In this document: piece by piece, positions 1-14,093 of the stretch | How the letters are laid out: each line of letters opens with the position of its first letter | How positions within the stretch are numbered: the stretch's first letter is position 1 | NCBI GenBank assembly: GCA_016795185.1 | Contig: JAEUIF010000468.1 | Span: 1 to 14,093, forward strand | Direction of reading: 5' to 3' | DNA from: Planctomycetia bacterium | GTDB taxonomy: Bacteria > Planctomycetota > Planctomycetia > Gemmatales > Gemmataceae | DNA: 14,093 nucleotides | Program-made: the position numbers and the translations under genes | The notes under the pieces: model-generated | What the model saw: only the letters and a program-made list of their open reading frames with translations | Told to the model about the DNA's origin: nothing | Database searches by the model: none

Positions 1-1
1 C

Positions 2-130
2 GTCGGCGGTACCAAGATGAAGATTCACAAGGCGGCCGTCGCCCGCCTGTTCGAGAGCAACGACCAGGTGCTCGACGCCGAGGAGATTTACACGCTGGCC
101 CAGGGGAGAGGGGAGAAATTCGGTTGGTAG
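2..130 (+). CDS. 3' end of an unidentified CDS that starts upstream of the window (...GGTKMKIHKAAVARLFESNDQVLDAEEIYTLAQGRGEKFGW*)
   Basis: Open frame from the window edge to TAG at 128-130. It converges on the minus-strand gene that ends at 145. No family recognised. Confidence 0.3.
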   Translation, partial: VGGTKMKIHKAAVARLFESNDQVLDAEEIYTLAQGRGEKFGW

Positions 131-144
131 CCCCTATGTCCTCG

Positions 145-1344
145 CTACCTCCCGGCCAGCACCGCCGCCAGCCGTTGCCCGACGATCTCCGCCTGGCCTG
201 GTTCCAGCATCCAGGTTGAAACCTCGATGCCGTCGGCGATTAGAGGCCGCACTTCGATCTTCGGTTCTCCCTCGCGTAGCTGTTTCACGACCTCGGCCGG
301 TTTCCGCAGGCTCACGTCCCAGGTGATGCGCAGGTGCGGCACGCGGTTGGCGATGGGCGGCACAAAGGTTTCGGTCTTCACGCCCTGGACCTTGCCGACC
401 GCTGTAGCGATGGTCCGCACGCGCGCTTCCCATTCCTTCCAGACGGCCGCGTGGTCTTCCTTGAGGTAGGCTTCCAGCGCCGCCCACATGCCGACGATAT
501 CTTCCTTATCCACCTTGTTGGTGCGGCCGATGGAGTCCGTGTGCGGGTTGTTGTTCAGCGCTGCGGCCTCGATCAAGTCCTTGCGGCCCAGCAGCAAGCC
601 AGTACTCTGCGGGCCGCGCAGCCCCTTGCCGCCGGAAAAGGTCACGAGATCGTAGCCCATCTTGAGGAAGCGCGACAGGTTCTCGGCGGGCGGAATCTCG
701 GCCGCCGCATCGTTGAGCGTCGGCACCTTCAGCTTCCGGCCCAGCTCCGCGAACTCCTCGACGTGAATCTTGCCGATGGGATCGTTGTCGTTGAAGAACA
801 GCATCAGCGCGGTGCGTTCGCCGACGGCTTTCTCCAGGTCCGCCCGCGACTCCACTTCAATGAGTTTGACGCCGACATTGCGAACGGCGTGGTCGTAGCC
901 GTAGCGGTGCGCCTTCTGGATGATGACTTCGTTCTTCATCCCTGCTGTGTCCGGTAAGCGACGAATTTTCTCCGCGTCCTTGCCCGCCACGCAGGCCGCC
1001 GTGGCGAGCGTGAGGGCCGAGGCCGCGCCGGCAGTCACCAGCGCCGCCTCGCAACCGGCCCGTGCGGCGATGCGCTGGCCCACCGCCTGATGCAATTCGC
1101 CCAGGTTGACGAACTGCCGGGACGCCGACTGCATGGCCTCCAGCACTTCGGGACGCGGCAGCGAACCGCCCAGCGTGGTGTAAGTGCCCGCCGCGTTAAT
1201 CAGCGGCCGGACGCCGAGTTCGCGATACACGTCGCGCCCGCCCGGAGCCGCCGCCTGCAACGACGGAGCCAACCATTCGAGCAGCGGGCCAACGCCCGGC
1301 AAACAGAGCAGCGCCTGAATGAACCCACGACGATGGGGGTGCAT
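145..1344 (-). CDS. SelA-like PLP-dependent enzyme (L-seryl-tRNA selenium transferase family) with Tat signal peptide
   Basis: 399-aa ORF with an N-terminal twin-arginine motif (HRRGFIQALL). The motif VTFSGGKGLRGPQSTGLL resembles the PLP-lysine region FSGDKLLGGPQ of SelA-family enzymes. GGAG lies 7 nt upstream of the ATG at 1344 on the minus strand. Confidence 0.68.
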   Translation of the reverse strand: MHPHRRGFIQALLCLPGVGPLLEWLAPSLQAAAPGGRDVYRELGVRPLINAAGTYTTLGGSLPRPEVLEAMQSASRQFVNLGELHQAVGQRIAARAGCEAALVTAGAASALTLATAACVAGKDAEKIRRLPDTAGMKNEVIIQKAHRYGYDHAVRNVGVKLIEVESRADLEKAVGERTALMLFFNDNDPIGKIHVEEFAELGRKLKVPTLNDAAAEIPPAENLSRFLKMGYDLVTFSGGKGLRGPQSTGLLLGRKDLIEAAALNNNPHTDSIGRTNKVDKEDIVGMWAALEAYLKEDHAAVWKEWEARVRTIATAVGKVQGVKTETFVPPIANRVPHLRITWDVSLRKPAEVVKQLREGEPKIEVRPLIADGIEVSTWMLEPGQAEIVGQRLAAVLAGR

Positions 1345-1373
1345 GCGAAGACTCCGTGGTTGTCGCTTTTCCG

Positions 1374-1437
1374 AAGTTCGTAGTTCCGCCTTCAGGCGGC
1401 GAGTCGCTCGACCGCCTGAAGGCGGAACTACGAACTT
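1374..1437. repeat. Perfect 26-bp inverted repeat (AAGTTCGTAGTTCCGCCTTCAGGCGG / CCGCCTGAAGGCGGAACTACGAACTT) with a 12-nt spacer; a long stable hairpin
   Basis: Arms at 1374-1399 and 1412-1437 are exact reverse complements. The spacer CGAGTCGCTCGA is itself partly self-complementary. It sits between the stop of the 1461-2987 gene and the start of the 145-1344 gene (both minus strand). There is no U-tract on either side, so it is not a canonical intrinsic terminator. Confidence 0.9.
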
Positions 1438-1460
1438 GAATCCGGCTCAAACTTTGAGTG

Positions 1461-2987
1461 TCACGCCAGCGCCGCCCGCGCCCGCTTCACCAGTTCGTTG
1501 TCGCGGTCCTGGGTGCCGTGCAGGTTGAACATGCTCGACGCCAGGAAGCGATTGCGCAGCGCCGGCGTCGCGTGATAGAAATCCTCCAGCGCGGCCGAGC
1601 TAAACTTGTAATCGTGCGAATCGCGGCCTTTGAGAAAGATCAAACGTCGCGCGGCCGTCATCAGGGCCTGCGGGTCGGCGTCGGGCTGTTCGAGGTAGGC
1701 CAGCGTTTTCCGGGCGGCGGCCAGCCGGTCCTTGCTGACTTCCGTCAGCACTTCCTCGATCGCGCCCGGGCCGCTCGCCTGCGGCTTGAGGGCTTCCAGG
1801 GTATCGAGCTTGAGGTCGTCGCGGACTTGGCCGCGCTTCTTCATCGCCTCACGGAACATCGGCAGGAAAGCACCGGCTTGCAGCAGCAGGAAGCGACGAG
1901 TCTCATCGTTCGCGGAATTCTGGAAGCCGAAATACAGAGCGTTCGCCGTCGTGACCGTGTGCAGGCCGACGATGCCCGGCTGACGCATCAGCAACTCGCC
2001 GGCCCCGAGGAAGATGCCGTCCCACACGGAGTCCGGATCGACTTGCTTGTTCAGCAAATCCACGATCTGCTCGGAAACGTCGGCCGGCGAGCCGGTGCGC
2101 AACGTGGACAGGAAGCTCGCGGATGCGCTGGGGTCGGCCTTGCCGCGCTGCCAGTGGGCACGAATCTTCGCGAGCCGTTTGAGGTTGTCGCGCCCGGGTC
2201 GATCCTGTTCGGCGTCGCGCTGGGCGGGTTTGTCGCCCTCGTGGTCGAGCAGGCCGAACGCCAGCGAACGCATGATCGGCTCCGCGTGCCGCCAGCCAAT
2301 GGTCTGCAAGGTCCGCCAGGCATTGGCCACGTAGATGGCCTTGTGGCCGATGTCGCGAAAGTCGCGCGCCCCGAGCCGCCAGAACGCCTCGATGACCTCG
2401 ATGGCCCCGGCGTTACGGACGAACGAGGCGATGGCGCGGTCGGAGCCTTCCTCATCCCAGTTCCCCATCGCTTCGAGGAACCGCTCCCGGGCCTGATGCC
2501 CGGCGGGCAGCTTGGCTTCATCCACCGGCGGCATCGACCAGTTGCCTTCCTGGCGGTTGCGCTCCTGCGAGTTCTTGAAGTAGTCGAGCGACCAGAACAA
2601 CGGCAGCCAGCGGTCGCTGTCCGGAGCCGCCACGGTCGCCAGGTGCGCGGAGTTGACCACCAGCACCGCATGGAACTTGAAACCGACCGGCCGGGGCCGA
2701 ATGCCGCGCACGCCCGCCAGCATCAGAGCGGACAGCAGTTCCTGATAGGTCGTGCCCTTCTTGATCTTGTCGCCCACTGCTTCCAGCAGACGGTTCTGCG
2801 GCGTGTCCTCGATGAGCCGGACCAGCGGCTCGATGTCCGGGCTCAGTTGCACCTTGCCCGGCGCGGCCTTGACGTCGTCGGCCGAGAGCACCGGAAGTCC
2901 GCGCAGAAAAGCAAAGTCGCCCAGGCCCGCGACCGCGGTGGTTTGCAGCGAGCGACGAACGAATTCACGTCGATTGATGCGAGACAT
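1461..2987 (-). CDS. Tat-exported protein of unknown function
   Basis: 508-aa ORF whose N-terminus, MSRINRREFVRRSLQTTAVAGLG, is a typical twin-arginine signal. GGAGGG lies 7 nt upstream of the ATG. Family not recognised from sequence alone (possibly one of the Planctomycete DUF families). Confidence 0.6.
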   Translation of the reverse strand: MSRINRREFVRRSLQTTAVAGLGDFAFLRGLPVLSADDVKAAPGKVQLSPDIEPLVRLIEDTPQNRLLEAVGDKIKKGTTYQELLSALMLAGVRGIRPRPVGFKFHAVLVVNSAHLATVAAPDSDRWLPLFWSLDYFKNSQERNRQEGNWSMPPVDEAKLPAGHQARERFLEAMGNWDEEGSDRAIASFVRNAGAIEVIEAFWRLGARDFRDIGHKAIYVANAWRTLQTIGWRHAEPIMRSLAFGLLDHEGDKPAQRDAEQDRPGRDNLKRLAKIRAHWQRGKADPSASASFLSTLRTGSPADVSEQIVDLLNKQVDPDSVWDGIFLGAGELLMRQPGIVGLHTVTTANALYFGFQNSANDETRRFLLLQAGAFLPMFREAMKKRGQVRDDLKLDTLEALKPQASGPGAIEEVLTEVSKDRLAAARKTLAYLEQPDADPQALMTAARRLIFLKGRDSHDYKFSSAALEDFYHATPALRNRFLASSMFNLHGTQDRDNELVKRARAALA

Positions 2988-3156
2988 GGAAGCGCCCTCC
3001 GGGAAAGGTTCGGTCGGAGACGGCTACACGGGAACCTCAGCATTATACCCACGCGCTCACGGCTACAGCTAGCCGCAGGGTGGCACGTCCTCGGTACTCC
3101 GAGGGCGTGAGAACCGCTGCACCATTCCCAAACTTCAACAATGAAAACGATGTCCG

Positions 3157-4662
3157 CTATTCTTGCGCACTGGCTGGGGCGGTCGTGCCATTGGCTTCCG
3201 ACCGTCGCGCGCCGAACTGGTCCGCCAGCGCGAGTACGCTGGCCAGGAAACCGGCCAGGCCGTCCCCTGGCGCGCCGTCACCGCCGATGTGGACCGAACG
3301 CAGTTCGTCGGGTTTGGGCAGCGTCGCGGCGATCTCCGGCAGCCGGGCGATCAACTGCGCTTGCAGGTGGGCGGAAGATAGGTCGTTGTCGAGGGCGCGG
3401 CGCTGCTTCTCCACGCCCAGGTCGCGCTCGTGGCGAGCGGCGGTTGCCTCATGGACCAGGGTCTCCGTCTGGAGCCGCGCCGCGGTGCGCGAGCGTTCCA
3501 GTTCGGCCCTGAGCTGTTCCAGTTCGGCTTGCTGGCGCAGGGACTGCAACTCTTGCTGCACGCGCCGGCCTTGCACGTCCAGTTCGTGCAGCGCGCGTTC
3601 CAGCTCCGCCTCGCGCCGCGTCTTCTCGGTGGCCGTCTGTTCGACCAGGGCGCGGCGCGCGGTCTGCTGCTCGATGTCGAACCGTCGGACTTTCTCGCTT
3701 TCCTCGCGGTCGAAGCGCTCGCGCTCCTGCTGGCTGCGGACGTCGGCCAGGCGCCGCTCCACTTCCAGTTCCGCGATTTCCCGCGTCTGGCGGTTGTGCA
3801 GTTCCTGTGCGGCAATTTGCTGCTGGGCTTCCAGTTCCGCCAGGCGGGCCAGTTTTTCGCGGTCGGCCCGGAACGGCTTCTGCAAGTTCTCCCAGACGCG
3901 CGTGGAACTGACTACCGCTTCCTTGATTTGCACGGTAACGATCTTCAGGCCGAGCCCCGTCGAGCGGTCGGCGGCCTCGTCGCCCTCCGCCACCGCCCGC
4001 AGGCGGTGCGTCAACTCGGCGATGATCGGCTGCTTGTCGTTGAGGATGGCGTCGATGCTCATGGTGGCCACCTTGTCCTTGATGGCCGCTTCCGCCTGTT
4101 CGCGCAGCTGCACCTTGACGATGCGCATGCGGTCGCCGGGGTCCGAGAAATCGAGCCGCCGGTAGGCCGTCTTCACGTCGTCCACCACCCACTGGACGTA
4201 AGCCTGAACCAGCACTCCCTGGCGTTCGGCGCAGATGCAACGAGCGTTGATGAGCAGAGTTTGCACCGCCGCGGGGATAATAAGAAAGGCATCGGTGGCG
4301 GGACGGTAGTGGAACGAAAGGCCCAGCCCGATGTTGATGGGCTCGGCATGGCCCCGCCGCGTGTGGACGACATAGACATTGGGCGCGACGACGACGGTTT
4401 TCCAAAAGCCAAAGCCGGTAATGCGATAGTCGGACGGCACAATGCCGGCGGCGCCGCCGGCATCTCGGGGTGCCTCATCCTCAATTCCTTTCATCCCCTT
4501 CTTGAACTCGACGATTCCCTTGGCAAGCTCGCGTCCGATCCCTCGCGTGGCGATCTGTACTGGCGCCGGCGGAGCCGGCTGATGCCGAGGTTGCAGGTCG
4601 CGCTCGACCTGGGCCTGTTGATTCATGACCTCGTTGAGATAACTGTTGGCTTGCTCGATCAT
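3157..4662 (-). CDS. SPFH/band-7 domain protein, flotillin-like (YqiK/FloT-type) with a C-terminal Glu/Ala/Arg-rich coiled coil
   Basis: The SPFH core (YRITGFGFWKTVVVAPNVYVVHTRRG ... IVTVQIKE) is followed by an EAELE/RREAELER-type heptad-rich region and a flotillin-like C-terminus. Start is chosen at the internal ATG (4660-4662, codon 26 of the track ORF) because GGGAGAA sits 6 nt upstream; the track ORF runs to 4737. Confidence 0.7.
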   Translation of the reverse strand: MIEQANSYLNEVMNQQAQVERDLQPRHQPAPPAPVQIATRGIGRELAKGIVEFKKGMKGIEDEAPRDAGGAAGIVPSDYRITGFGFWKTVVVAPNVYVVHTRRGHAEPINIGLGLSFHYRPATDAFLIIPAAVQTLLINARCICAERQGVLVQAYVQWVVDDVKTAYRRLDFSDPGDRMRIVKVQLREQAEAAIKDKVATMSIDAILNDKQPIIAELTHRLRAVAEGDEAADRSTGLGLKIVTVQIKEAVVSSTRVWENLQKPFRADREKLARLAELEAQQQIAAQELHNRQTREIAELEVERRLADVRSQQERERFDREESEKVRRFDIEQQTARRALVEQTATEKTRREAELERALHELDVQGRRVQQELQSLRQQAELEQLRAELERSRTAARLQTETLVHEATAARHERDLGVEKQRRALDNDLSSAHLQAQLIARLPEIAATLPKPDELRSVHIGGDGAPGDGLAGFLASVLALADQFGARRSEANGTTAPASAQE

Positions 4663-4756
4663 GATTTGTTCTCCCGAGAACCGAGGTGCCCTATCTGGGT
4701 GTGGACTCGCCCGCCAACAGGTATGAGTCGGGAACACGCGAACGGGTTCGCGATGG

Positions 4757-5836
4757 TTACCGCTTCAGCCAGCGATCCAACCAGTCGTAAGCGACCTGGC
4801 GCACTTCCGACGGGAAGTTATGGTCGCAATCGGGGTAGCTGGCGCTCAGCCGGTCGCCCGCGCCGAGCAGTTCATAGACCGGCCGGGCGGCCCGGATGCA
4901 ATCCTTGACGCCGTCGGGATCGAAGTTGTGGTCCTTCACCGGCGCGCTGGCCAGGAAGGCGCGCGGCGCGAGCGCCGCCGTCACCTCGGTGAAATCGAAG
5001 GGCACCTTCTCCGGTTTGAGGTCGTAAACGGTACGAAGGCGCGGCATGTAGCCGTCGTGGCTCCAGCCCTTCAGGTCGCCCTTCATGTATTTCGGAAAGC
5101 TGCAAAAGCCGCAGTTGGAAACGATACAGCGAATGCGCGGATCGAACGCGGCCACAAACATGCTGTTGTGCCCACCTAGCGAATGGCCGATGACGCCGAT
5201 GCGTTTGGGATCGACTTCCGCCAGCGACTCCAGCAGATCGACGCAACGCATGTGGTTCCAGATGCCCTTCATGGTCGCGCTGACGTAGCCGTGCTGATAG
5301 GGATCGAACTGGTACTCGCCCATGTTGACGTAGTCCGGCGCGAGCGTCACGTAACCGCGTTCGGCCAGGTGGACGGCATAGGCCCGGTCTTCCTTCGGCC
5401 CCAGGCCCACCGCCACGCCTTTGCCCAGGTCGCGGCTGGTGGGGTGCAGGCACAGCACGGCCGGCAGCCTGCCCTTCGCGTCGAGCGGGATCAGCAAGTA
5501 AGCCGGCAGCCGATCGCCCTTCTCGACTGCGAGGGTAAGCTTGCGGCGCAGGTACTTCTCCATCTTCACTTCCTCGACGACTCGCACGTCGAGCGGCACC
5601 TTGCGACTGTCGTCGGGCAACGGCCCCATCACCTGCTGCATGTTCGCCAGGATGTGCGCCCGCCGCTTGGCCCAGTCGTCCGCGCTGCGGACCGGATGTT
5701 CTTTGTTGTCGGCGTCGCGCCAGACAAGGAGCTTCGTTTTGTCGGGATAGGTCGGGGTTGTTTGTGCCAGGCCGCTGCCCGGCAGCGCGGCGACCGCACC
5801 CAGACTAACGAGCAGCAACCTCGCGAATGGCTTCAT
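4757..5836 (-). CDS. secreted alpha/beta-hydrolase (dienelactone hydrolase / acetyl esterase-like), Sec signal peptide
   Basis: GHSLGG nucleophile elbow (GxSxG) in an alpha/beta-hydrolase-like context. The signal peptide MKPFARLLLVSLGAVAALPGSGLAQ begins at the internal ATG (5834-5836), which has AGGAG 9 nt upstream; the track ORF extends to 5896. Confidence 0.62.
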   Translation of the reverse strand: MKPFARLLLVSLGAVAALPGSGLAQTTPTYPDKTKLLVWRDADNKEHPVRSADDWAKRRAHILANMQQVMGPLPDDSRKVPLDVRVVEEVKMEKYLRRKLTLAVEKGDRLPAYLLIPLDAKGRLPAVLCLHPTSRDLGKGVAVGLGPKEDRAYAVHLAERGYVTLAPDYVNMGEYQFDPYQHGYVSATMKGIWNHMRCVDLLESLAEVDPKRIGVIGHSLGGHNSMFVAAFDPRIRCIVSNCGFCSFPKYMKGDLKGWSHDGYMPRLRTVYDLKPEKVPFDFTEVTAALAPRAFLASAPVKDHNFDPDGVKDCIRAARPVYELLGAGDRLSASYPDCDHNFPSEVRQVAYDWLDRWLKR

Positions 5837-5889
5837 CGGGCAAGGCTCCTTGTGGTAGAATGCGCGCAGTCTGCCTGCGAGGACCAAAC

Positions 5890-6156
5890 ATGGCAAGTAA
5901 ACTCTCCGCCCCGAACGACGCCGTTGAAATGTTCCACCGGTTGGTGGAACCGCGCAACGGCTAACTCACCAAGGCTGCGGCGCGCGTCATCCTCGGCTGG
6001 ACATTCGGGGAAGAAGATCGCACCCGCATGAATGAACTGGCCGAGAAGAATCGAGCGGGCGAACTCACGGCGGAGGAGCAAACCGAGTTGCACTGCTACC
6101 TGCGCGTGGGGAGCCTTCTCGATCTGCTGCACTCCAAGGCGCGCTTGAGCCTGTAA
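5890..6156 (+). pseudogene. small ORF (24 codons) with good RBS, followed after an in-frame TAA (5962-5964) by 63 further open codons in the same frame; possible interrupted small gene
   Basis: GAGGA lies 6 nt upstream of ATG 5890. The frame reads MASKLSAPNDAVEMFHRLVEPRNG*LTKAAARVILGWTFGEEDRTRMNELAEKNRAGELTAEEQTELHCYLRVGSLLDLLHSKARLSL*, with no alternative start near the beginning of the second segment. Confidence 0.3.
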
Positions 6157-6204
6157 CGGCAGGCCACTCGATCCAGCCCTGCCAAATCGCCGGTTGGCCT
6201 CAGT

Positions 6205-6455
6205 TCCGGAGCCCCGGAGGGGCGTAAGCGCTGTAGCCCACGGCGCGAGCCGTGGGACAACGATCCCAACCACACCTCAGCCCCGGCGGGGCGGAAGATA
6301 GTCCCAAACGGTTGCTGCACAAGCGAGGTGTCGAGCACGACGAGCCCTGTTCGCGCTGCTGCCTTTCGCCCCTCCGGGGCTGGGTGCATCGAGACGTTCC
6401 GTTCCCACGGCTTGCGCCGTGGGCTACCGTGCTATCGCCCCTCCGGGGCTAACAC
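6205..6455. repeat. Cluster of REP-like GC-rich palindromic units: 15-mer AGCCCCGGAGGGGCG (x3, both orientations) and hairpin CCCACGGC-NNNN-GCCGTGGG (x2); two 47-bp copies in inverted orientation (6210-6256 and 6404-6450)
   Basis: 6210-6256 reads agccccggaggggcgtaagcgctgtagcccacggcgcgagccgtggg. The reverse complement of 6404-6450 is agccccggaggggcgatagcacggtagcccacggcgcaagccgtggg, about 85% identical. An extra 15-mer copy lies at 6367-6381 and a variant cagccccggcggggcgg at about 6279-6295. All lie in the 3' intergenic region before the stop of the 6499-9528 gene. Confidence 0.8.
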
Positions 6456-6498
6456 AGCTTGCGACGCGCTCCAGCCGGGCGTCATTGGTCACTGTAAG

Positions 6499-9400
6499 TC
6501 ACTTCCGCCCCGCCACTCCCAGCAAATACGCGATCACATCCGCCAGGTCTTGCTTGGAGAGTTGCTTTTCCAGTTCGTCGGGCATCAGCGACTTGACCGT
6601 GGCCTGGATCTCGTCGATCTCGCCGCGCAGGATGGTGTCCTCCGCTTTCTCGGCCCGGCGCAGCGTGATGCTGCCGGGGGCGTTGACGGCCAGGATGCCC
6701 GTCAGGAAGCGGCCGTTCTTCGTTGTCACCACGTAGTTCAGGTAGCGCGGATCGACCTCGCGGCTGGGGTCGAGGATGTCGATGACCAGCCCTTCCGGAG
6801 TCTTGGTCTTCAGGGCCGCCAGCAGATCCGCGCCGACCTCCGCGCCTTCGTTCTCCAGGCGGTGACAGACGCTGCAATTCTTCTTGAAGACCGCCTTGCC
6901 ACGCGGCGCGTCGCCGGCCAGGTCCAGAGCGGTGCGGTAGTCGTCGATGACCTTCTGGCGGTCGCCGGTGGTGCGGGCGGCGAAGAGTTGTGCGACGCGC
7001 TTGCGCACCTCGGCATCCGGATGCTTGCGCAGCAGGTCCACGCGGGCGGCTTCGATCTGCCCTGGCAATACCTGCTTCTTCTCGACGGCGTCGAGCAGCT
7101 GCCGCACCCGCTCCGGCCGGCCGAGCAGGGCTTCGACGGCTTCGCGGCGCAGGTCGGGCGGGTAGCTGTTCCACGCAGCCAGCAGCAGGTCGGCGATCTT
7201 CGGGCTGTCCTGGGCGGAGAGAGCACGCACGGCGGCGAGCTGCACTTCCGGTGGGTGCTGCGGCGCGAGCAAGCCCGGCAACACATCGCCGCCGACGGCG
7301 AACGGCCCGACGCCCAGCAGACGCACGGCGGCGAGCCGTTCCGGCAGCGGTTGCTTCTCGTCGCGTGCCGTTTGCGCCGCCCGCTCGAAGAACGGCCGGG
7401 CCTTGCCAACCGCTTCCTTCAGTGCGGGTGAGGGTTCTTCCCAAAGCTTGCGCAGGGGCCGCTGGGCGATTTGCAGTCCTTGTCCCAGCCCGTCCAGCAC
7501 CGCCAGTTGCCAGGCGGGACTGACCGAGTCACCGCCAAGCAGCGTCAGGGCGCGGGCCAGGTCGGCATCGCTGTTGCTCGCGCCGATCAGCGTGGCCAGT
7601 CGGACCACGAATTGCCGTTCCTCGGCGGTCAGGTTTCGCACGAACTCGCGATCCTGGCTCAGCGTCGCCAGCAGGTCCGGCGCCTTGCCCTTCGCGGAGC
7701 TGAGGATCGCCAGCTGGAACCAGGATTGGCCGGCGTCGCGCCGCGCCAGCTTGGCCAGGGCCGTAGTCAATTCGGGAGCATCGGCCGCGCCCAGGGTGAA
7801 GGCCAATTGAAAGCGCACCCGCGCCTGGGCATGGTCCACCAGCGGCGTCATGCTTTGCCGCAGCGTCGCCGATGCGGCCAGTCGGTCCTCGGCCAGCCGC
7901 AGCGCTTGTTCGACGACATAGGGGTTGGCGGCTTTCAGGTTGGCTTCGATCAGTTCATCGTCCAGGGCCTTCAGGCCGTGCAGCGTCCAGAGTGCGTGCA
8001 TGCGGCCTTGGCCCGCCGGCACGCGGTCCAGCACCTTGTCTTCGCGCGCTAGCTTCTTCAAGGGCGCGACGGCGGCCTGGTCGTGGCGTTCGATCAGCAG
8101 CCGCTGGGCGGTCAGCCGTCGCCAGCTGTTTGGGCTGCCCAGCTGCTGGACCAACTCGGCGGCCGATGCCTTGCTCAGGGCGGGCAAGTGCTGCGGTTGC
8201 TGGGCGTCGCGCGCGAGCGTTTCGGGCACGATGCGCCAGATGCGGCCGCGCCCCCGGCTATCCAGGTTCAGCTTCTTTTTGATGTCGTCGGGCAGCGATA
8301 GCGGCGTCTCAATGGCTTCGCGGTAGAAATCACAAACGTAGATCGCACCGTCGGGACCGATAGTCAGGTTGACGGGGCGGAACCAGTTGTCGGTGGAAGC
8401 CAGGAACTCGCAACCCTCATCGGCCCGCTTGGCGGTGAAGATGCTGCCCTGATCGATCAAGATATCCCGATGGATCAAATTGTTCGCCGGCTCGCAGACG
8501 AAGCTCTGGCCGTAGTATGCCTCCGGAAACAGCCCGCCGTTGTAGACCACCGGACTGCACGCGGACGTGATGAAGCCGCCCGGCACCAGTTCCGTGGGCG
8601 AGAAGCGCTTGGAGTCCGTCCCGTCCTTGCGGCGCGTGGTGCGTTCGACGCGCCAGCCTTCAAACGGACTGATGCGATGCACCTGGCAGGCCGCGCCGTG
8701 GTCGGGAATGTCGATGGTCACGGCAGGTACGGCCAGCGCCGGGTTGCGGCGCAGGTAGTGGTCGGACAGCACAATCTGCCGGAGGTGCTGGCTGTTGGTG
8801 GCAGTGAACCAGTGCTGTCCGTCGTCGGCGGCCAGGCCGAACTGCCCGCCGCCGCTGGTCGGTTCCAGGCTGCCCGGCCGCGCCGGCTGGAAGCGGATGC
8901 CCCGGCCCCGCAGCGCCACGCCCGCTCCCAAGCCGTCGCCCGTGATGGTGCCGCCCTTGCCGCCCGCATTGGCGTAGACCCAGTTGTCCAGGCCCCATTG
9001 CAGGCTGTTCAGCAGCTGCTGAATGTTGTCGAGATCGAAGCCGGTGTAGAGGACTTTCTTTTCGTAGCCCTTCGCGGTCTTCTCGAAGTAGAGCAGGTCC
9101 GGAGCGACCGCCGCCAGCAGCCCGCCCTTGTACGGCATCACGGACGTGGGAAAGCGCAGGTTCTCGGCGAACGTGCTGCTGCTCTCGTAGTAGCCGTCAC
9201 CGTTCTTATCTTCGAGCAGCTTGATCTTGCCCGTGGAGATGTCGCCGGTGCCGAGGCCGCCGTTGGGATAGCCGCGCATCTCGGCGACATACATCCGGCC
9301 GTCCTCGTCGAAGGCTAGCGCCACCGGATCGACGACTTCCGGTTCGGCGGCGACCAGTTCGACCTTGAAGCCCTTGAGGATGCGGAAGGTGGCCAGTTCT

Positions 9401-9528
9401 TCGCGCGGCGACAGCGGCCCAGCCGGCGGGTCGCTCGGCTTGTCGGCGGCGGAAAGCAGGACCGCGCCGCCCGTGAGCACCAGCAGCATCAAACCGCGCG
9501 CGAGCAATCCGAAACGCGACATGGCCAC
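6499..9528 (-). CDS. Planctomycete/Verrucomicrobia-type large exported protein: N-terminal putative membrane-bound dehydrogenase (beta-propeller) domain, central HEAT-like repeats, C-terminal c-type heme-binding domain (CSVCH)
   Basis: Signal peptide, then FRILKGFKVELVAAEPEVVDPVALAFDEDGRMYVAEMRGYP, which is typical of the Pirellula/Verrucomicrobium dehydrogenase-domain family. The C-terminus has GKAVFKKNCSVCHRLENEG, a CxxCH heme motif. The start may be GTG at 9528 or ATG at 9522. Confidence 0.75.
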   Translation of the reverse strand: MAMSRFGLLARGLMLLVLTGGAVLLSAADKPSDPPAGPLSPREELATFRILKGFKVELVAAEPEVVDPVALAFDEDGRMYVAEMRGYPNGGLGTGDISTGKIKLLEDKNGDGYYESSSTFAENLRFPTSVMPYKGGLLAAVAPDLLYFEKTAKGYEKKVLYTGFDLDNIQQLLNSLQWGLDNWVYANAGGKGGTITGDGLGAGVALRGRGIRFQPARPGSLEPTSGGGQFGLAADDGQHWFTATNSQHLRQIVLSDHYLRRNPALAVPAVTIDIPDHGAACQVHRISPFEGWRVERTTRRKDGTDSKRFSPTELVPGGFITSACSPVVYNGGLFPEAYYGQSFVCEPANNLIHRDILIDQGSIFTAKRADEGCEFLASTDNWFRPVNLTIGPDGAIYVCDFYREAIETPLSLPDDIKKKLNLDSRGRGRIWRIVPETLARDAQQPQHLPALSKASAAELVQQLGSPNSWRRLTAQRLLIERHDQAAVAPLKKLAREDKVLDRVPAGQGRMHALWTLHGLKALDDELIEANLKAANPYVVEQALRLAEDRLAASATLRQSMTPLVDHAQARVRFQLAFTLGAADAPELTTALAKLARRDAGQSWFQLAILSSAKGKAPDLLATLSQDREFVRNLTAEERQFVVRLATLIGASNSDADLARALTLLGGDSVSPAWQLAVLDGLGQGLQIAQRPLRKLWEEPSPALKEAVGKARPFFERAAQTARDEKQPLPERLAAVRLLGVGPFAVGGDVLPGLLAPQHPPEVQLAAVRALSAQDSPKIADLLLAAWNSYPPDLRREAVEALLGRPERVRQLLDAVEKKQVLPGQIEAARVDLLRKHPDAEVRKRVAQLFAARTTGDRQKVIDDYRTALDLAGDAPRGKAVFKKNCSVCHRLENEGAEVGADLLAALKTKTPEGLVIDILDPSREVDPRYLNYVVTTKNGRFLTGILAVNAPGSITLRRAEKAEDTILRGEIDEIQATVKSLMPDELEKQLSKQDLADVIAYLLGVAGRK

Positions 9529-9571
9529 CCCTTGTATTGGCTTGCTACAGCAGTTTGCGACTGAATGGAGC

Positions 9572-9620
9572 GGTCCGCACAGCGGACCATACGGTATTCT
9601 GTAGGGTCCGCTGTGCGGAC
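9572..9620. promoter_or_regulatory. Pair of 7-bp-stem hairpins GGTCCGC-ACA-GCGGACC (9572-9588) and GGTCCGC-TGT-GCGGAC (9605-9620), mutually inverted, flanking a palindromic ATACGGTAT centre; candidate operator or terminator structure
   Basis: Seen directly in the intergenic region between the 3' end of the 9678-11036 gene and the start of the 6499-9528 gene. Confidence 0.4.
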
Positions 9621-9677
9621 TATTCCTCCGTGTGGTCCATCAATCAGCGAACCGCGCCAAACCGTAAACGGTTCGGG

Positions 9678-11036
9678 TTACTTGGTCAATTCGTGGACCT
9701 TGGCGACGATGCGTTCCTCGATGGCGGGCGACCACTTGGTCGGGAACCCGTAATAAATCATGGAGGAATCCGCCTCGTAACCGCCTTCTTTCAAGACCCG
9801 CGCCGACGGGATGTAGGCCATCACGTCGTTGGCGTAGGCCGTCACCCAGACTGGCGGGCCGCCGCTCAGTTCCTTCTTCAGCCGCAGGGCGTAATCGACC
9901 ACCACTTCGCCGCCCAGCCCGATCCACAGCAGGTCGTTGCCCAGCCGCCAGACCTGCACCGGGTAGTGGGGATAATGATCGTCGAGCTTGCCCTTGGTTT
10001 CCAGCGTTTTCAGCAGGCGCGTCGCGCGGTTGCGCAGCGCCAGGTTCTTGCTCAGGGTATCGGCCGTCAGCTGGTCCTTCGAGGGCAGTTCGCCCAACGG
10101 CAGCGTCACCGACGCCAGTTTCGCCTTGAAGGGACCGCGCACCGGCGACATCGGCTTGCGCAGCACATCGCCGACGGCTTCCGCCAGCCCCCGGCCGTGC
10201 GTCTGGGCATGTTCCACCTGGCCGCGCGGCTGCGGGTTGGCGTCGCCCGCGCAGCCGGCCCAGAACAGGGCGACCGCGCCCGGATGCTTCGCCTCCAGGT
10301 CGGCCTGGGCGAAGCCCGCGTAGTCGCCGCACCACTGGTAAAAGTTCAGCGTGGTGTTATGGCAAGCGTAGCCGAAGACCACCGCCCGCAGCTTGCCCTC
10401 GGGCGTTTCGACCTTCAGCACCGGGACATCGTGATCCACGGGACCGGCCGGATCGCGCAGATTGATGACGCCCTTCGGCGATGCCTCGCGCCGGTTCATC
10501 GCGAAACGAATGGTGCCCTTGCCGTGCGCCAGCCGCGCGGGCCGCAGGTCCTTCAGGGCCGCCTCGACGACCTCCACCATCCAGCGGTGCAGTTGCTCGG
10601 TGTAGGCTTCGATCTTCTTCGCGTGCTCCGGCCCCATCGGGTACATGTCGGCCAGGTTCTCGCGCAGCACCGGCCCGCAGTGGGTGTGCGAACTGGTGAG
10701 CATCAGGCGCTCGCGCGGCAGCCCGGTGCGTTTGCGCACCTCCTCGGCCACCGGCTCCGCCAGACTGCGCGGGAAGCCGATCAGGTCGCTGGTCAGCAGG
10801 ACCAGCTTGCCCCCGGCGGCGTCTTCGAGGGCCACCGCCTTGAGGAACAGGTCGTGCGTCTTGCCCTCGGCCGGCTTGGTCCGGGAGGCGTAGCCGGCCA
10901 TCCACAACGGCTCCGACGGTGTGACGACCTTCACCGCCACGCCGGCCTTGAGGGCGGACTCGTCGGCCGCGCGGACCGGCAGCAGGGCCAGCAGCGTCAA
11001 GCACAGAGCGATGCCTGTCGCAAGGCAGCGGGACAT
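9678..11036 (-). CDS. secreted neutral/alkaline (non-lysosomal) ceramidase-like hydrolase, N-terminal domain type
   Basis: The signal peptide MSRCLATGIALCLTLLALLPVRAADE starts at the internal ATG (11034-11036), which has GGGAG 8 nt upstream; the track ORF runs to 11165. The region AGVAVKVVTP..WMAGYA...LMLTSSHTHCGP matches the GKADITG..VGMMGYS...ATHTHSGP layout of neutral ceramidases. It is shorter than the Pseudomonas enzyme and lacks the C-terminal tail domain. Confidence 0.6.
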   Translation of the reverse strand: MSRCLATGIALCLTLLALLPVRAADESALKAGVAVKVVTPSEPLWMAGYASRTKPAEGKTHDLFLKAVALEDAAGGKLVLLTSDLIGFPRSLAEPVAEEVRKRTGLPRERLMLTSSHTHCGPVLRENLADMYPMGPEHAKKIEAYTEQLHRWMVEVVEAALKDLRPARLAHGKGTIRFAMNRREASPKGVINLRDPAGPVDHDVPVLKVETPEGKLRAVVFGYACHNTTLNFYQWCGDYAGFAQADLEAKHPGAVALFWAGCAGDANPQPRGQVEHAQTHGRGLAEAVGDVLRKPMSPVRGPFKAKLASVTLPLGELPSKDQLTADTLSKNLALRNRATRLLKTLETKGKLDDHYPHYPVQVWRLGNDLLWIGLGGEVVVDYALRLKKELSGGPPVWVTAYANDVMAYIPSARVLKEGGYEADSSMIYYGFPTKWSPAIEERIVAKVHELTK

Positions 11037-11520
11037 GGCAGGACTCCCGAAAATGGTTCGAGGTCGGTTGGCAACGCGGACGGAAAGGTAAACCCCCGTC
11101 CGGGCACGGAGTCGCAGGGAGAGTCCATCCAGGCCGGTCAGTGCCGCCGATTGGATGGGGGGCATCTACCGACTACCCTCCGTGCCAAGAAAAATCCGGC
11201 TGGCACCGAGCCTCAAAAACCCCAATGTTTTGCCACTGCGCGCCAAAATGCGTTTCCCGCCAGACTCCCCTTGAACCGCCGCACCTCGATTTGGCAGGAT
11301 GGCGGCTGCGGAGCGCCCGGGGCTGCCCGTGATGCGCCGCTCGCGGCTTCGCCGGGCGCGCTTCCCTCGGGCCGCGCCACCCGCCAGCTGGCATCCGCCT
11401 CCGTCCGTGCTACAATTCGCTGGTTCCACGACTCCACCCCGGAGTTCGCCCGTGACGGCCGTCTCCCAGCCAACCACCGTGCCCTCGCAACCCCGGTTGC
11501 TCGACCGGGTCCGGTAGGCC

Positions 11521-12444
11521 TTGCGCGTCCGGCATTACAGCCTGCGCACCGAGGAAGCCTACGTCGCCTGGATCAGACGCTACATCTACTTTCACCACAT
11601 TCGCCACCCGGACGCGATGGGCGCGGCGGAGATCAACGCCTTCCTGACCGACCTCGCCGTCAACGGCCGGGTCGCCGCCTACACCCAGTCCCAGGCCCTG
11701 TGCGCCTTGCTGTTCCTGTACACCACCGTGCTCGAACGGCCCTTCGGCGAGCTGGGCGATGTCATCCGGGCGCGCCGGCCCAAACGCTTACCGGTGGTGC
11801 TGACTCGGCCGGAAGTGCTCCGCGTCCTGGAGCACCTGACCGACACGTATCGCCTGATCGGCCGGTTGCTCTACGGCAGCGGCCTGCGCCTGATTGAAGG
11901 CTTGCGGCTGCGGGTCCAGGACGTGGATTTCGGCCGCCACGAAATCACCGTGCGCCAGGGCAAGGGCGACAAGGACCGTCGGACCATGCTGCCCAGCTGT
12001 ATTGCAGCCGACCTACAGGCGCACATCGAACGGGTCCGCGCGCTGCACCAGCGCGACCTGGCCGAGGGGTACGGCCGGGTCTACCTGCCGCACGCGCTGG
12101 AGCGCAAGCTGCCGCACGCGGCTGCCGAGTTCGGCTGGCAGTACGTGTTTCCAGCTGCCCGGCGCTCGCGCGACCCGCGTTCGGGCGCGGTGCGACGCCA
12201 CCACGCCCACGAAGCGGCCATTTCGCGCGCCCTCACCGACGCCGTCCGCCGCTCCGGTATCCGCAAGCGGGCGACCAGTCATTCCTTCCGGCACAGTTTT
12301 GCGACGCACCTACTGGAAGCCGGCCACGACATTCGGACGGTGCAAGAACTACTCGGCCACGAAGACGTAAGTACCACGATGATCTACTGCCACGTACTGA
12401 ACAAGGGCGGCCTGGGAGTGCCCAGCCCCCTGGACGGGTTCTGA
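11521..12444 (+). CDS. intI: tyrosine recombinase with IntI-specific insertion (integron integrase-like); TTG-start ORF whose conserved N-terminus lies upstream of an in-frame TAG (11515-11517), see findings
   Basis: The [19 protein letters not shown] and [14 protein letters not shown] motifs are present, along with the IntI-specific insertion [37 protein letters not shown]. The catalytic-region motifs RHSFATHLL and [16 protein letters not shown] are also present. Similarity to IntI1/VchIntIA across the whole length is strong and recognisable from memory. Confidence 0.92.
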
Positions 12445-12595
12445 GCTGCGCAAGTATCATTATGGTGTTATTTTGCGCGGATTTTGCAGACGTTATGATT
12501 GTAATAATTTAACATCAATAGACTTGTGTTAATTCTCGCCGGCTGGGAGCAAAGAGTGTTATTTTGCGCCGGCGCAAGATAAACACATGTTAGGC
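12445..12595 (+). other. putative attI site and cassette-promoter region: AT-rich (~40% GC) with two 14-bp direct repeats GTGTTATTTTGCGC (12465-12478, 12556-12569) and core site GTTAGGC (12589-12595), followed by a second core-like GTTAAAT (12596-12602)
   Basis: Seen in sequence. The layout parallels attI1, where two GTTA-containing IntI-binding direct repeats sit upstream of the GTTAGGC simple site. Confidence 0.5.
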
Positions 12596-13207
12596 GTTAA
12601 ATACAACCGAGGCTCAACGATTGGACGCATGGGACCGACTCCGAGCGCTATTTGACACCGATGATGGCGGGTTGTATGACATCCGATTAACGGGCCTTGG
12701 TGAAGCAAGTTTGGTAGCAGCATTTGAGTTCATTCGATCCCGCTCAAAGGTTACGCCGGATGCATTGTTTTGGCACACGACCTTGCAAAAGGACGAGCGA
12801 GTGGCTGACCACCCAGATGCGCCTCGGCTTGTGGCTCAGGGCATAGCCGAACCATTTCATGTGCTCGCGTCTAGTCTTGAGTTCGCCGGCGCCATCATCC
12901 CGGATTTGGGTGTGTTCGTTTGGCCGGATGAGTTGACGTTGGACTACCGCATGGGACCAGAGTGGGATCGACCGCAACTCATCGCGTTATTTGAATTGCT
13001 ACGGCAATTGGTCGCCGTCTCAGATGGCGGAGTCGGATTGGGCCGGCACGTTCTGCCGCAGGTGGACGCCGAATTTGTGCGCGAGTGGCGGGCATACTGT
13101 CAGGTATGCGGCGAAAACGCCTAACCAACCGTTGCACCTGACGCGGCGGCATTACGGTTCTTCAGAGTTCAACGTCTCACCAGCCGCCGCGCAGGTGAAC
13201 GGTAGCG
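12590..13207 (+). mobile_element. gene cassette 1 (from G|TT of attI core to G of attC1 R')
   Basis: Bounded by GTTAGGC (12589-12595) and GTTCGGC (13207-13213). It contains one ORF and attC1. Confidence 0.65.
12621..13124 (+). CDS. cassette-encoded hypothetical protein (167 aa), ~50% GC, TTG start
   Basis: GAGG lies 8 nt upstream of TTG 12621. GC content is clearly below the ~67% host average. The TAA stop falls inside the attC R'' box GCCTAAC. No family recognised. Confidence 0.6.
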   Translation: MDAWDRLRALFDTDDGGLYDIRLTGLGEASLVAAFEFIRSRSKVTPDALFWHTTLQKDERVADHPDAPRLVAQGIAEPFHVLASSLEFAGAIIPDLGVFVWPDELTLDYRMGPEWDRPQLIALFELLRQLVAVSDGGVGLGRHVLPQVDAEFVREWRAYCQVCGENA

Positions 13208-13213
13208 TTCGGC
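13119..13213 (+). other. attC site 1 (95 bp): R'' GCCTAAC ... R' GTTCGGC, imperfect palindrome
   Basis: gcctaac-caaccgttg-cacctg-acgcggcggc ... gccgccgcg-caggtg-aacggtagc-gttcggc. The arms pair with single-base bulges (extrahelical bases). It opens with the same GCCTAAC as the aadA1 59-be. Confidence 0.7.
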
Positions 13214-13756
13214 CAAGAGAGGCTTCCCGTGGGGTTCAGGTTCCGGGGCTTCTTCTCGGACGCCGATGAAGCCGCGATGGCTGCGGCGGTAAGCCGCTGG
13301 CCGTTCTGCACGGCCAAGCCCGTCGTCGATCCGTTCCGCGGCTTCGGCCTGCGTGCCCCGGACCCCGACCGAGAGGCCGACTCCGACGAGGAGTACGAGC
13401 GACTGCTGGAGTTGCCGTTCGCGGTGGAGCGGGGCTTGGCGGAGTTCAGCCTGGGGTTCCCGGACGCGACGTTCGTGTTCATCGACGCCGATTGCGTCGG
13501 CGGCACCTGCGTGTATACCGGGTTCGTGGTACGAGCCGGTGCGGTCCACCTGAGCGTAGCGGACGTGCAGCCGGGGTCGGAGCCGTTGCAGCGACTCCTT
13601 CAGCCGCTCGGTGTGCAGCTACGGTCCGGCTACTTCGCGCCGTTCACACGCGGGTACTGGTAGGCGGCCGAACCAGGCGCTGCAGCAGACGGCGGGGGCA
13701 TGTAGGTTTTCCAGGGTCACAGCTCACTCGGCCCCCGCCGCTGTTGAGCTTGGTCG
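13208..13756 (+). mobile_element. gene cassette 2
   Basis: Runs from TT of attC1 R' (13208) to G of attC2 R' (13756). It contains one ORF and attC2. Confidence 0.6.
13229..13663 (+). CDS. cassette-encoded hypothetical protein (144 aa), GTG start
   Basis: AGAGAGG lies 6 nt upstream of GTG 13229, and the ORF starts 16 nt after the attC1 R' box. An alternative ATG is at 13277. No family recognised. Confidence 0.5.
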   Translation: MGFRFRGFFSDADEAAMAAAVSRWPFCTAKPVVDPFRGFGLRAPDPDREADSDEEYERLLELPFAVERGLAEFSLGFPDATFVFIDADCVGGTCVYTGFVVRAGAVHLSVADVQPGSEPLQRLLQPLGVQLRSGYFAPFTRGYW

Positions 13757-13762
13757 TTCGGC
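13667..13762 (+). other. attC site 2 (96 bp): R'' GCCGAAC ... R' GTTCGGC (perfectly complementary boxes), imperfect palindrome
   Basis: gccgaac-caggcgctgcagcag-acggcgggggc ... gcccccgccg-ctgttgagcttggtc-gttcggc. The L''/L' G5/C5 cores pair and the arms carry bulges. Confidence 0.65.
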
Positions 13763-13780
13763 GGCGGAAGCGGAGTCGCG

Positions 13781-13960
13781 GATGGACCCATACCGGCAGC
13801 TCGCGGCGGGTCCCAGGACGGGGTCGCCGCGCCGGTTCGTGGCCCCCCGGTCCTGGGGCCTCCCGTCCCCGGCCCGCTCCGCCGGGGGGCACGGCTCAGC
13901 GCGTTCAGGGGCGACCGGCGGTGACGGCCGAACCACCGCGTTCAGCTGCCTCCTCTAGCC
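13781..13960 (+). CDS. possible small cassette ORF (59 aa, low complexity, Arg/Gly/Pro-rich)
   Basis: GGAG lies 6 nt upstream of ATG 13781. The stop TAG at 13958-13960 lies just after an attC-like start (GCCGAAC 13927-13933). This could be a spurious high-GC ORF. Confidence 0.2.
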
Positions 13961-14056
13961 CGCATTTCTCACCAGAATAAGGAACCGGCTTGCTTCCGGA
14001 GCGTCAAGTGATTGTAGCCGCAGTCACTTGCGTTTCCTGGAAGGAGCAAGCCGGTC

Positions 14057-14093
14057 ATGACACAGTGTAGCAGCCCGCCGTTGACTTTTCACG
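14057..14093 (+). CDS. 5' end of an ORF running off the window (MTQCSSPPLTFH...)
   Basis: AAGGAG (14041-14046) lies 10 nt upstream of ATG 14057. The SD is embedded in the right arm of a long hairpin (13984-14055). Confidence 0.3.
   Translation, partial: MTQCSSPPLTFH

Follow-up and report, generated by a model that had tools for sequence, protein, structure and literature searches.

GTTCGGC/GCCGAAC attC sites beside an integron integrase gene in a Planctomycetia bacterium

Introduction

The classical attC site of integrons (the 59-base element, such as that of the aadA7 cassette) is an imperfect palindrome of the plan R''-L''-loop-L'-R' with conserved AAC and GTT triplets, two extrahelical bases (positions 16 and 23) with a 6-bp stem between them, and a position directly past the open reading frame (ORF) of its cassette. 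During integration and excision the crossover falls between the G and the TT of the R' box; the final six bases of an R' box read in situ therefore derive from, and belong to, the cassette downstream. Base 16 is usually G, a T at 23/24 is conserved with a 6-bp stem between the two, and the GTT/AAC triplet supplies the micro-homology that strand transfer requires (Nivina et al. 2016, PMC5027507), the triplet positions being the most conserved of the R boxes (PMC4889954). Here we analyze two sites, attC1 and attC2, in a 14,093-nt stretch of DNA from a Planctomycetia bacterium of the Gemmataceae (contig JAEUIF010000468.1 of assembly GCA_016795185.1, positions 1 to 14,093), referred to in its entirety as the window. 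These sites share with classical attC sites the palindromic plan, the triplets, the spacing of the extrahelical bases, the location past an ORF and the crossover register. In contrast to the latter, R-box position 4 is a G:C pair rather than A:T or a G:C pair of the reverse orientation (GTTCGGC versus GTTRRRY), C replaces G at bottom-strand position 16, and the sites are longer than the aadA7 attC (95-96 nt versus 60 nt), with a GC-rich distal stem of 9-10 bp and a loop of conserved sequence among family members.

Two further groups of described systems are relevant. Eleven taxon-specific attC models, including models for Planctomycetes and Acidobacteria, have been published (Ghaly et al. 2021, PMC8352920). 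Like the attC families of Vibrio (VCRs) and Xanthomonas, the sites described here represent a sequence-and-structure type that is common to related hosts and occurs in arrays. The initial annotation of this DNA had likened them to the repeats of chromosomal superintegrons, a comparison that appears too strong: the window holds only two complete sites of an array that apparently runs on beyond it, and these are 72% identical to each other, whereas VCR-like arrays show 80-99% identity within the array (loci L029, L058, L054 and L039).

The second group comprises integrons of inverted layout. Co-orientation of integrase and cassettes has been described before, in a group of inverted layout that is regarded as paraphyletic (Cury et al. 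2016, PMC4889954). As in the inverted-layout integrons of, for example, Treponema (PMC4889954), the integrase gene (intI) and the cassettes of the window lie on one strand and the attI region lies past the 3' end of intI. The same co-oriented layout was found in all seven loci that carry the closest homologues of the window integrase and in L005, L023 and L024. Unlike the inverted-layout group, however, the window integrase is 57-66% identical to ordinary integrases of divergent layout from many phyla. Moreover, the integron of locus L151, whose integrase is 56% identical, has a divergent layout and yet carries the same attI palindrome and attC family, which fits the published paraphyly of the inverted group.

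Our analysis indicates that this region is very probably the start of a chromosomal (sedentary) integron, consisting of intI, attI and at least two complete cassettes that each end in an attC site. On sequence comparison, GTTCGGC/GCCGAAC is the standard core of the attC family and the attI junctions of this lineage, with a compensated G:C pair in place of A:T beside the GTT/AAC triplet.

Results

Anatomy of the two attC sites. On the + strand, attC1 extends from 13119 to 13213 (95 nt, GCCTAAC...GTTCGGC) and attC2 from 13667 to 13762 (96 nt, GCCGAAC...GTTCGGC), strings, positions and lengths that the initial annotation had given exactly. Folding and a bulge-aware alignment of the stems revealed a plan common to both sites, in which a 7-nt R box is followed by a short spacer, a 3-6-bp stem, base 16, a 6-bp stem, base 23, a GC-rich stem of 9-10 bp and a loop of about 30 nt. 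In attC1, the R'' box GCCTAAC (13119-13125) and the R' box GTTCGGC (13207-13213, of which TTCGGC is owned by cassette 2) enclose stems at 13128-13133/13198-13203, 13135-13140/13192-13197 and 13142-13150/13183-13191, with G16 (13134) and A23 (13141) unpaired and the loop at 13151-13182. In attC2, the R'' box GCCGAAC (13667-13673) and the R' box GTTCGGC (13756-13762) enclose a central spacer (13674-13678 and 13750-13755) and stems at 13679-13681/13747-13749, 13683-13688/13741-13746 and 13690-13699/13731-13740, with G16 (13682) and A23 (13689) unpaired. The last stem of each site is the GC-rich inverted repeat recognized in the initial annotation, where it was labelled an L core; it is instead the distal stem, which lies past the second extrahelical base. 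The "a" with which each repeat had been made to begin is the extrahelical A23 itself (T on the bottom strand).

Read on the top strand, both sites have an unpaired G at position 16 (C on the bottom strand) and an unpaired A at position 23 (T on the bottom strand). Single unpaired bases occur only on the arm adjoining the ORF (5' on the top strand, 3' on the bottom strand), with none opposite. This pair of bulges at 16 and 23 is the modal pattern among sites collected from integrase-bearing loci (83 of 147). The central spacer is unpaired over 5 nt and 6 nt on its two sides in attC2 and over 2 nt and 3 nt in attC1, where pairing of ACC with GGT accounts for the short spacer, and the variable loops measure about 31-32 nt. 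Folding of the bottom strands, proposed earlier as a check of the attC assignment, accordingly recovered both the extrahelical bases and the central spacer.

The terminal boxes retain AAC and GTT in both sites and pair in situ at 6 of 7 positions in attC1 (GCCTAAC/GTTCGGC) and at 7 of 7 in attC2 (GCCGAAC/GTTCGGC). Both sites had been described as starting with RYYYAAC-type boxes; GCCTAAC conforms, whereas GCCGAAC, which carries G at position 4, does not and complements GTTCGGC exactly. The full RYYYAAC/GTTRRRY pattern is departed from in cassettes 2 and 3, with C at R' position 4 and G in R''. This pattern is a consensus and not a requirement for an attC site.

Statistical support for the sites. 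A covariance model, R1, which was trained on 36 related sites with the window sequences excluded, scored attC2 at 98.7 bits on the + strand (E ~2e-24) and 22.5 bits on the - strand, and attC1 at 75.9 bits on the + strand (E ~3e-18) and 27.1 bits on the - strand; no other R1 match above 15 bits was found within the 14-kb window. A structural detector returned 153 oriented sites across integrase-bearing loci totalling 1.06 Mb, as compared to one in block-shuffled controls; the detector allows a free central spacer, and attC2 was detected only under that setting. In an alignment of 39 family sequences, 96.3% of stem cells were paired, versus 80% in shuffled alignments and 22-47% when the partners were slid, and the covariation score was 0.351 versus 0.092. 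In the same alignment, 10 of the 17 stem pairs showed double changes, and columns 16 and 23 were conserved and unpaired. Rfam gave no match in 12400-14093 at E values up to 10. The early identification of the two units as attC sites was borne out by the R1 scores on the + strand, the bulges at 16 and 23, and the adjacent intI and attI.

Cassettes and their boundaries. Cassette 1 occupies 12591-13207 on the + strand and consists of an ORF (12621-13124, 167 aa) plus attC1. Cassette 2, which begins TTCGGC, occupies 13208-13756 on the + strand and consists of an ORF (13229-13663, 144 aa) plus attC2. A third cassette starts at 13757 on the + strand (TTCGGCGGCGGAAG...) in DNA of 79% GC with no convincing ORF. 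The ORF stops lie at 13124 and 13663 and each attC starts at or just after one of them, placing both sites at the 3' end of + strand ORFs in an array of uniform orientation beside intI and attI. Neither cassette ORF matched a family in Pfam, NCBIfam or PADLOC. An independent Logan contig (L081, 1990 bp, identical to the window), the only record reached by look-ups of the two cassette ORFs, calls the same two cassette ORFs and ends inside attC2. The sequence is also present in SRR30217687.

The cassette starts reveal which R box belongs to which cassette. The start of cassette 1, G followed by TTAGGCGTT (12589-12598), is a perfect 10-nt complement of the end of its own R'' arm, AACGCCTAAC (13116-13125), such that the GCCTAAC box pairs at 7 of 7 positions (10 of 10 when extended). 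Likewise, the TTCGGC start of cassette 2 matches its own R'' box GCCGAAC at 7 of 7 positions, and cassette 3 also starts TTCGGC, with a third GCCGAAC at 13927. In other loci, R' of site n was perfectly complementary to R'' of site n+1 in 57 of 80 informative neighboring pairs and to its own R'' in four, even though the structural detector is biased toward own-pairing of R boxes, that is, against this shifted register. Together, the shifted-register rule and the cassette starts assign the non-canonical box to cassettes 2 and 3 and make cassette 1 canonical (GCCTAAC/GTTAGGC). The initial observation of an R' box GTTCGGC shared by both sites is accurate in that both end with it; however, the TTCGGC that ends attC1 is owned by cassette 2, and the R' box of cassette 1 is the canonical GTTAGGC at 12590-12596. 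The GC content is 57% in cassette 1, 68% in cassette 2 and 66% in the backbone, and the contrast between the two cassettes is consistent with different origins.

Many cassettes associated with attC sites of this family begin with the leader TTCGGCGGCGGAGG, which was found in the window at 13208-13230 and 13757-13776 (the latter being the start of cassette 3 given above) and at junctions in L204-L208. This leader puts a Shine-Dalgarno-like GGAGG a few bases upstream of the cassette start codon, for example in L206.

Distribution and lineage of the attC family. To the extent that loci of distant IntI relatives are concerned (79 loci from many phyla, integrase identity 57-66%, the only range returned by a scan of a genome collection), position 4 of R' was A in 110, G in 13, C in 6 and T in 2 of 131 sites, corresponding to 8 of 131 that depart from the consensus, and no site exceeded 68% similarity to the window attC sites. 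BLAST of attC1 and attC2 against 80 genome loci of IntI relatives recovered no family members, and BLAST against 72,556 plasmids gave only two 30-nt matches at chance level for attC1 and none for attC2, so that these plasmids show no sign of the GTTCGGC attC family in known mobile integrons.

In contrast, a metagenome scan with a 5'-arm pattern common to attC1 and attC2 identified at least 120 loci. Among the matches listed, 75 of 141 were complete attC hairpins, mostly of 93-101 nt, in which GCCGAAC (39) and GTTCGGC (27) were the commonest boxes; arrays homogeneous for these boxes included L151 (five sites), L166 (four) and L140 (three), and the site at L140:1256-1352 was 90% identical to attC1, while several others were 83-84% identical to attC2. 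The search for further units suggested by the initial annotation thus succeeded, and the units stand in arrays. There they adjoin differing ORFs, which together with the shifted register of the R boxes lends indirect support to recombination of such sites by an integron integrase.

The closest IntI homologues (69-80% identity) include proteins source-labelled Planctomycetia, Gemmataceae, Fimbriiglobus and Planctomycetes, and seven of their loci (L202-L208, IntI 69-73% identity) were examined. The GTTCGGC attC family was present in 7 of 7 of these loci, the cassettes lay on the intI strand in 7 of 7, and the attI junction that follows a conserved palindrome was GTTCGGC or GTTCGCG in 6 of 7. Within this group, attC2 was 91% identical to L204:11967-12062 and L206:11605-11701 and 89% identical to L205:11512-11609. 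The assemblies of L202, L203 and L208 are labelled Gemmataceae or Planctomycetes, and the integron of L205 has DUF1501/PSCyt2/PSD1 neighbor genes, which we take to be typical of planctomycetes. The window attC sites are members of this family by their R1 scores and by its presence in all seven loci examined from the closest integrase clade, in agreement with the lineage-specific family postulated at the outset. As judged from these sequences, the GTTCGGC/GCCGAAC box is a lineage trait and the rule in the closest IntI clade. Elsewhere, the window encodes a PVC-type haem protein (TIGR02604), which together with the source labels on the IntI homologues points to a GC-rich host that is probably a planctomycete.

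We found no paper that spells out a GTTCGGC attC core (a query for GTTCGGC with integron gave, by title, routine class 1 integron surveys) and none on Gemmata with integron and attC. The assemblies of L081, L204, L205, L207 and L208 stop inside or just past the first attC sites, which probably reflects an effect of repeated attC sequences on short-read assembly and an under-representation of arrays of this family in databases.

Several related loci showed additional features. L151 contains two identical 134-nt near-perfect palindromes (7209-7342 and 9177-9310) with GCCGAAC/GTTCGGC ends and no extrahelical base at position 16, one of which is the first unit past attI; they may be attC variants or a different element with shared ends. 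In L203, from a Gemmataceae-labelled assembly, two IS110-family (DEDD) transposase genes lie inside the integron array (8170-10960) and adjoin a family attC (9384-9470) that has no R'' box and in which R' breaks off precisely past GTCG; on either side of both transposase copies there is a direct repeat of 181 nt (96%).

The attI region. Directly after intI lies an AT-rich spacer of 146 nt, and the region from 12445 to 12596 on the + strand (41% GC) contains repeats, a palindrome and a crossover box. Direct repeats of GTGTTATTTTGCGC are found at 12465-12478 and 12556-12569, with a degenerate copy at 12526-12539; the 31-nt palindrome spans 12556-12586, and the box GTTAGGC (12590-12596) is located two bases past it. 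On these sequence features we read the spacer as an attI site, with crossover placed by inference between 12590 and 12591. A palindrome followed by 2-5 nt and then GTT was also found in L202, L204, L205, L206, L208 and L151, giving six related loci in which the attI-like layout stands after or before the integrase gene.

The centers of the attI palindromes vary by locus (GCGCCGGCGC, GCGCAGACGC, GAATGGGTTC, GCAAAATTGC) yet remain self-complementary, with palindrome lengths of 25-31 nt, and a GGTGTTA..TTGCGCG motif close to the intI stop is part of the conserved architecture. The palindrome may serve in integrase or regulator binding, or in a folded form of attI. In L207, a DUF433-containing gene pair (10969-11723) lies between the integrase stop and an attI-like junction, AGCTAATCAATG followed by GTTCGGC; L203 has two copies of this junction string (6537 and 13358). 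A weaker attC-like match in the window (12507-12602, ATTTAAC...GTTAAAT) was set aside because it arises from the attI repeats and palindrome.

The integrase gene. The intI ORF (11521-12444, + strand) encodes an integron integrase of 307 aa from a TTG start, on the same strand as the cassettes. The protein scored 461 bits against TIGR02249, the integron integrase model (cut-off 265), and aligned over residues 1-305 with the VchIntIA structure 2a3v (E 2.9e-88), including the extra segment specific to IntI, which aligns with VchIntIA 207-241. In our reading of this alignment, the usual catalytic residues of tyrosine recombinases are present, as are equivalents of W219, P232, H240 and H241, the residues that in VchIntIA make up the pocket receiving the flipped-out base. 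In the alignment of the IntI clade, these four equivalents and five of six catalytic positions are invariant. Upstream, at 11479-11518 on the + strand, lies a remnant of the 5' end of the gene (translation ..VPSQPRLLDRVR) that ends in an in-frame TAG, which the Logan contig L081 does not span. Exact-protein look-ups gave no match for the window IntI, the window ceramidase-like protein or the closest IntI homologue (P0001).

The third half-site and the window tail. A third R''/5' arm, GCCGAACCACCGCGTTCAGCTGCC (13927-13950, + strand), complements the 3' arm of attC1 as well as that of attC2 and shares the 11-nt CGGCCGAACCA with attC2, with a partial R1 match of only 11 bits; no matching 3' arm was found before the window end at 14093. 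Candidate readings of this third site are the end of the array, an attC of great length and an attC that was interrupted. Certain members of the IS1111 family are known to use attC ends as targets (PMC11187229); when the tail (13950-14093) was examined as an end of an IS1111-attC-type element as in the L203 array, no sequence similarity to L203 was found. Past the third arm the GC content falls to 55%, a stable 74-nt hairpin with 11-nt perfect arms occupies 13983-14056, and an ATG at 14058 (MTQCSSPPLTFH...), with a GGAGG-like site upstream, opens a frame that runs off the window end.

Distant from the integron, an Rfam match to Acido-Lenti-1 RNA (6404-6450, + strand; 38.6 bits, gathering score 37) lies between ORFs 6096-6389 (-) and 6499-9528 (-), described as divergent.

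Discussion

By analogy with the established integron mechanism, from which we infer recombination at these sites and any remaining activity of the window integrase, the attC sites would act as single-stranded DNA. The bottom strand would fold into a hairpin that, from its base outward, comprises the paired R box, a short unpaired spacer, a stem with flipped-out C16 and T23 six bp apart, the GC-rich distal stem and, at the tip, the loop of about 30 nt. IntI would bind this folded strand by recognizing the shape of the hairpin and would cut the bottom-strand AAC between A and C, corresponding to the top strand between G and TT (between 13207 and 13208 and between 13756 and 13757). The cut strand would then be exchanged with attI, between 12590 and 12591, or with another attC, and replication would resolve the junction, with the outcome that cassettes are excised or inserted as circles.

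Several observations weigh against reading the region as an intact integron start. Only two attC sites are complete, the third lacking its 3' arm. With respect to the sites themselves, C at bottom-strand position 16 is a minority form (41 of 147 sites in relatives, the usual base being G), the 6-bp stem between the bulges of attC2 holds one G.T (C.A on the bottom strand), the fold of attC2 is only modestly better than that of shuffled sequences (z -2.3), and the central spacer of attC1 is nearly fully paired. With respect to the enzyme, the TAG at 11516-11518 replaces the Gln of LLDRVRQA that is kept in 5 of 5 aligned homologues, so the frame is not intact over its full length and the 307-aa ORF restarts at TTG 11521, 3 nt past the stop. 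From its sequence, this copy of intI may be a pseudogene, may encode an N-terminally shortened integrase, or may owe the TAG to a sequencing error. An inactive or shortened enzyme would leave the cassettes reliant on an integrase supplied in trans.

These points suggest a possible, although on balance doubtful, alternative in which the attC sites are genuine but are relics of a decaying integron, the cassettes having become immobile, fixed chromosomal genes. The in-frame stop in intI, the third site with its 5' arm only and the mismatch between the extrahelical bases of attC2 would all be expected under such decay. Nevertheless, neither attC site has lost any structural feature, their scores are on a par with those of family members in other genomes, and the restarted ORF is only about 12 residues short relative to the crystallized VchIntIA, with catalytic and extrahelical-base pocket residues that by our own reading are intact. 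Moreover, one stop codon might reflect an error in sequencing, and an integrase acting in trans is able to recombine attC sites.

Another explanation is that the GTTCGGC core marks an altered substrate specificity, the IntI clade and a G:C pair at position 4 of the attC and attI R boxes having evolved together; the result would be a partly orthogonal system with poor cassette exchange with GTTAGGC-type integrons. This is improbable in our judgment. It would account for GTTC at the attI junction in six of the seven clade loci and in L151, and for GAAC/GTTC in nearly all attC sites of the clade, as compared to the six instances of C among the 131 sites of distant relatives. However, mixed arrays are common. 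For example, cassette 1 of the window, with GCCTAAC/GTTAGGC, sits at this very attI, TTAGGC follows the first attC of L206, both box types occur in L085, L154, L196 and L089, and GCCTAAC is found in 13 of 50 close family members. In addition, descent from an ancestor with a neutral compensated change accounts for the pattern just as well.

Finally, it is most improbable that the units are some other palindromic repeat with AAC/GTT ends, such as a REP-like element, a terminator or a miniature transposon end: the over-representation of GTTCGGC in the window (15 observed versus 4.6 expected), which makes the heptamer alone weak evidence for an attC, and the 134-nt palindromes of L151, with the same ends and no extrahelical bases, would favor such a repeat, but the window units lie directly downstream of intI and attI and each right past an ORF stop, have asymmetric bulges at exactly positions 16 and 23, show R boxes in the shifted register typical of cassette junctions, lack a terminator T-run and any Rfam match, and have relatives that stand in arrays beside integrases.

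Under the preferred reading of a sedentary integron start, the GTTCGGC core is a minor compensated change that leaves the GTT/AAC triplet untouched, in a setting where taxon-specific attC types have already been published, and our understanding of integron function is unchanged. A broader proposal, that integrons with planctomycete-labelled IntI form a partly self-contained recombination system, with a co-evolved G:C pair, a conserved palindromic attI at the crossover and, in the nearest clade, a co-oriented integrase, is speculative and we consider it rather unlikely; if it is correct, exchange of cassettes with ordinary GTTAGGC integrons would be restricted or biased.

In sum, these results document in detail one more sedentary integron from outside the Proteobacteria, with its attC family, attI architecture and cassette boundaries. 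GTTRRRY/RYYYAAC is too narrow a definition for environmental lineages, and searches that enforce this consensus would therefore miss the whole family; in addition, an R' box read in an array is to be counted with the cassette that follows it. The family model, together with the conserved attI palindrome, could help to trace the origin of cassettes in soil metagenomes.

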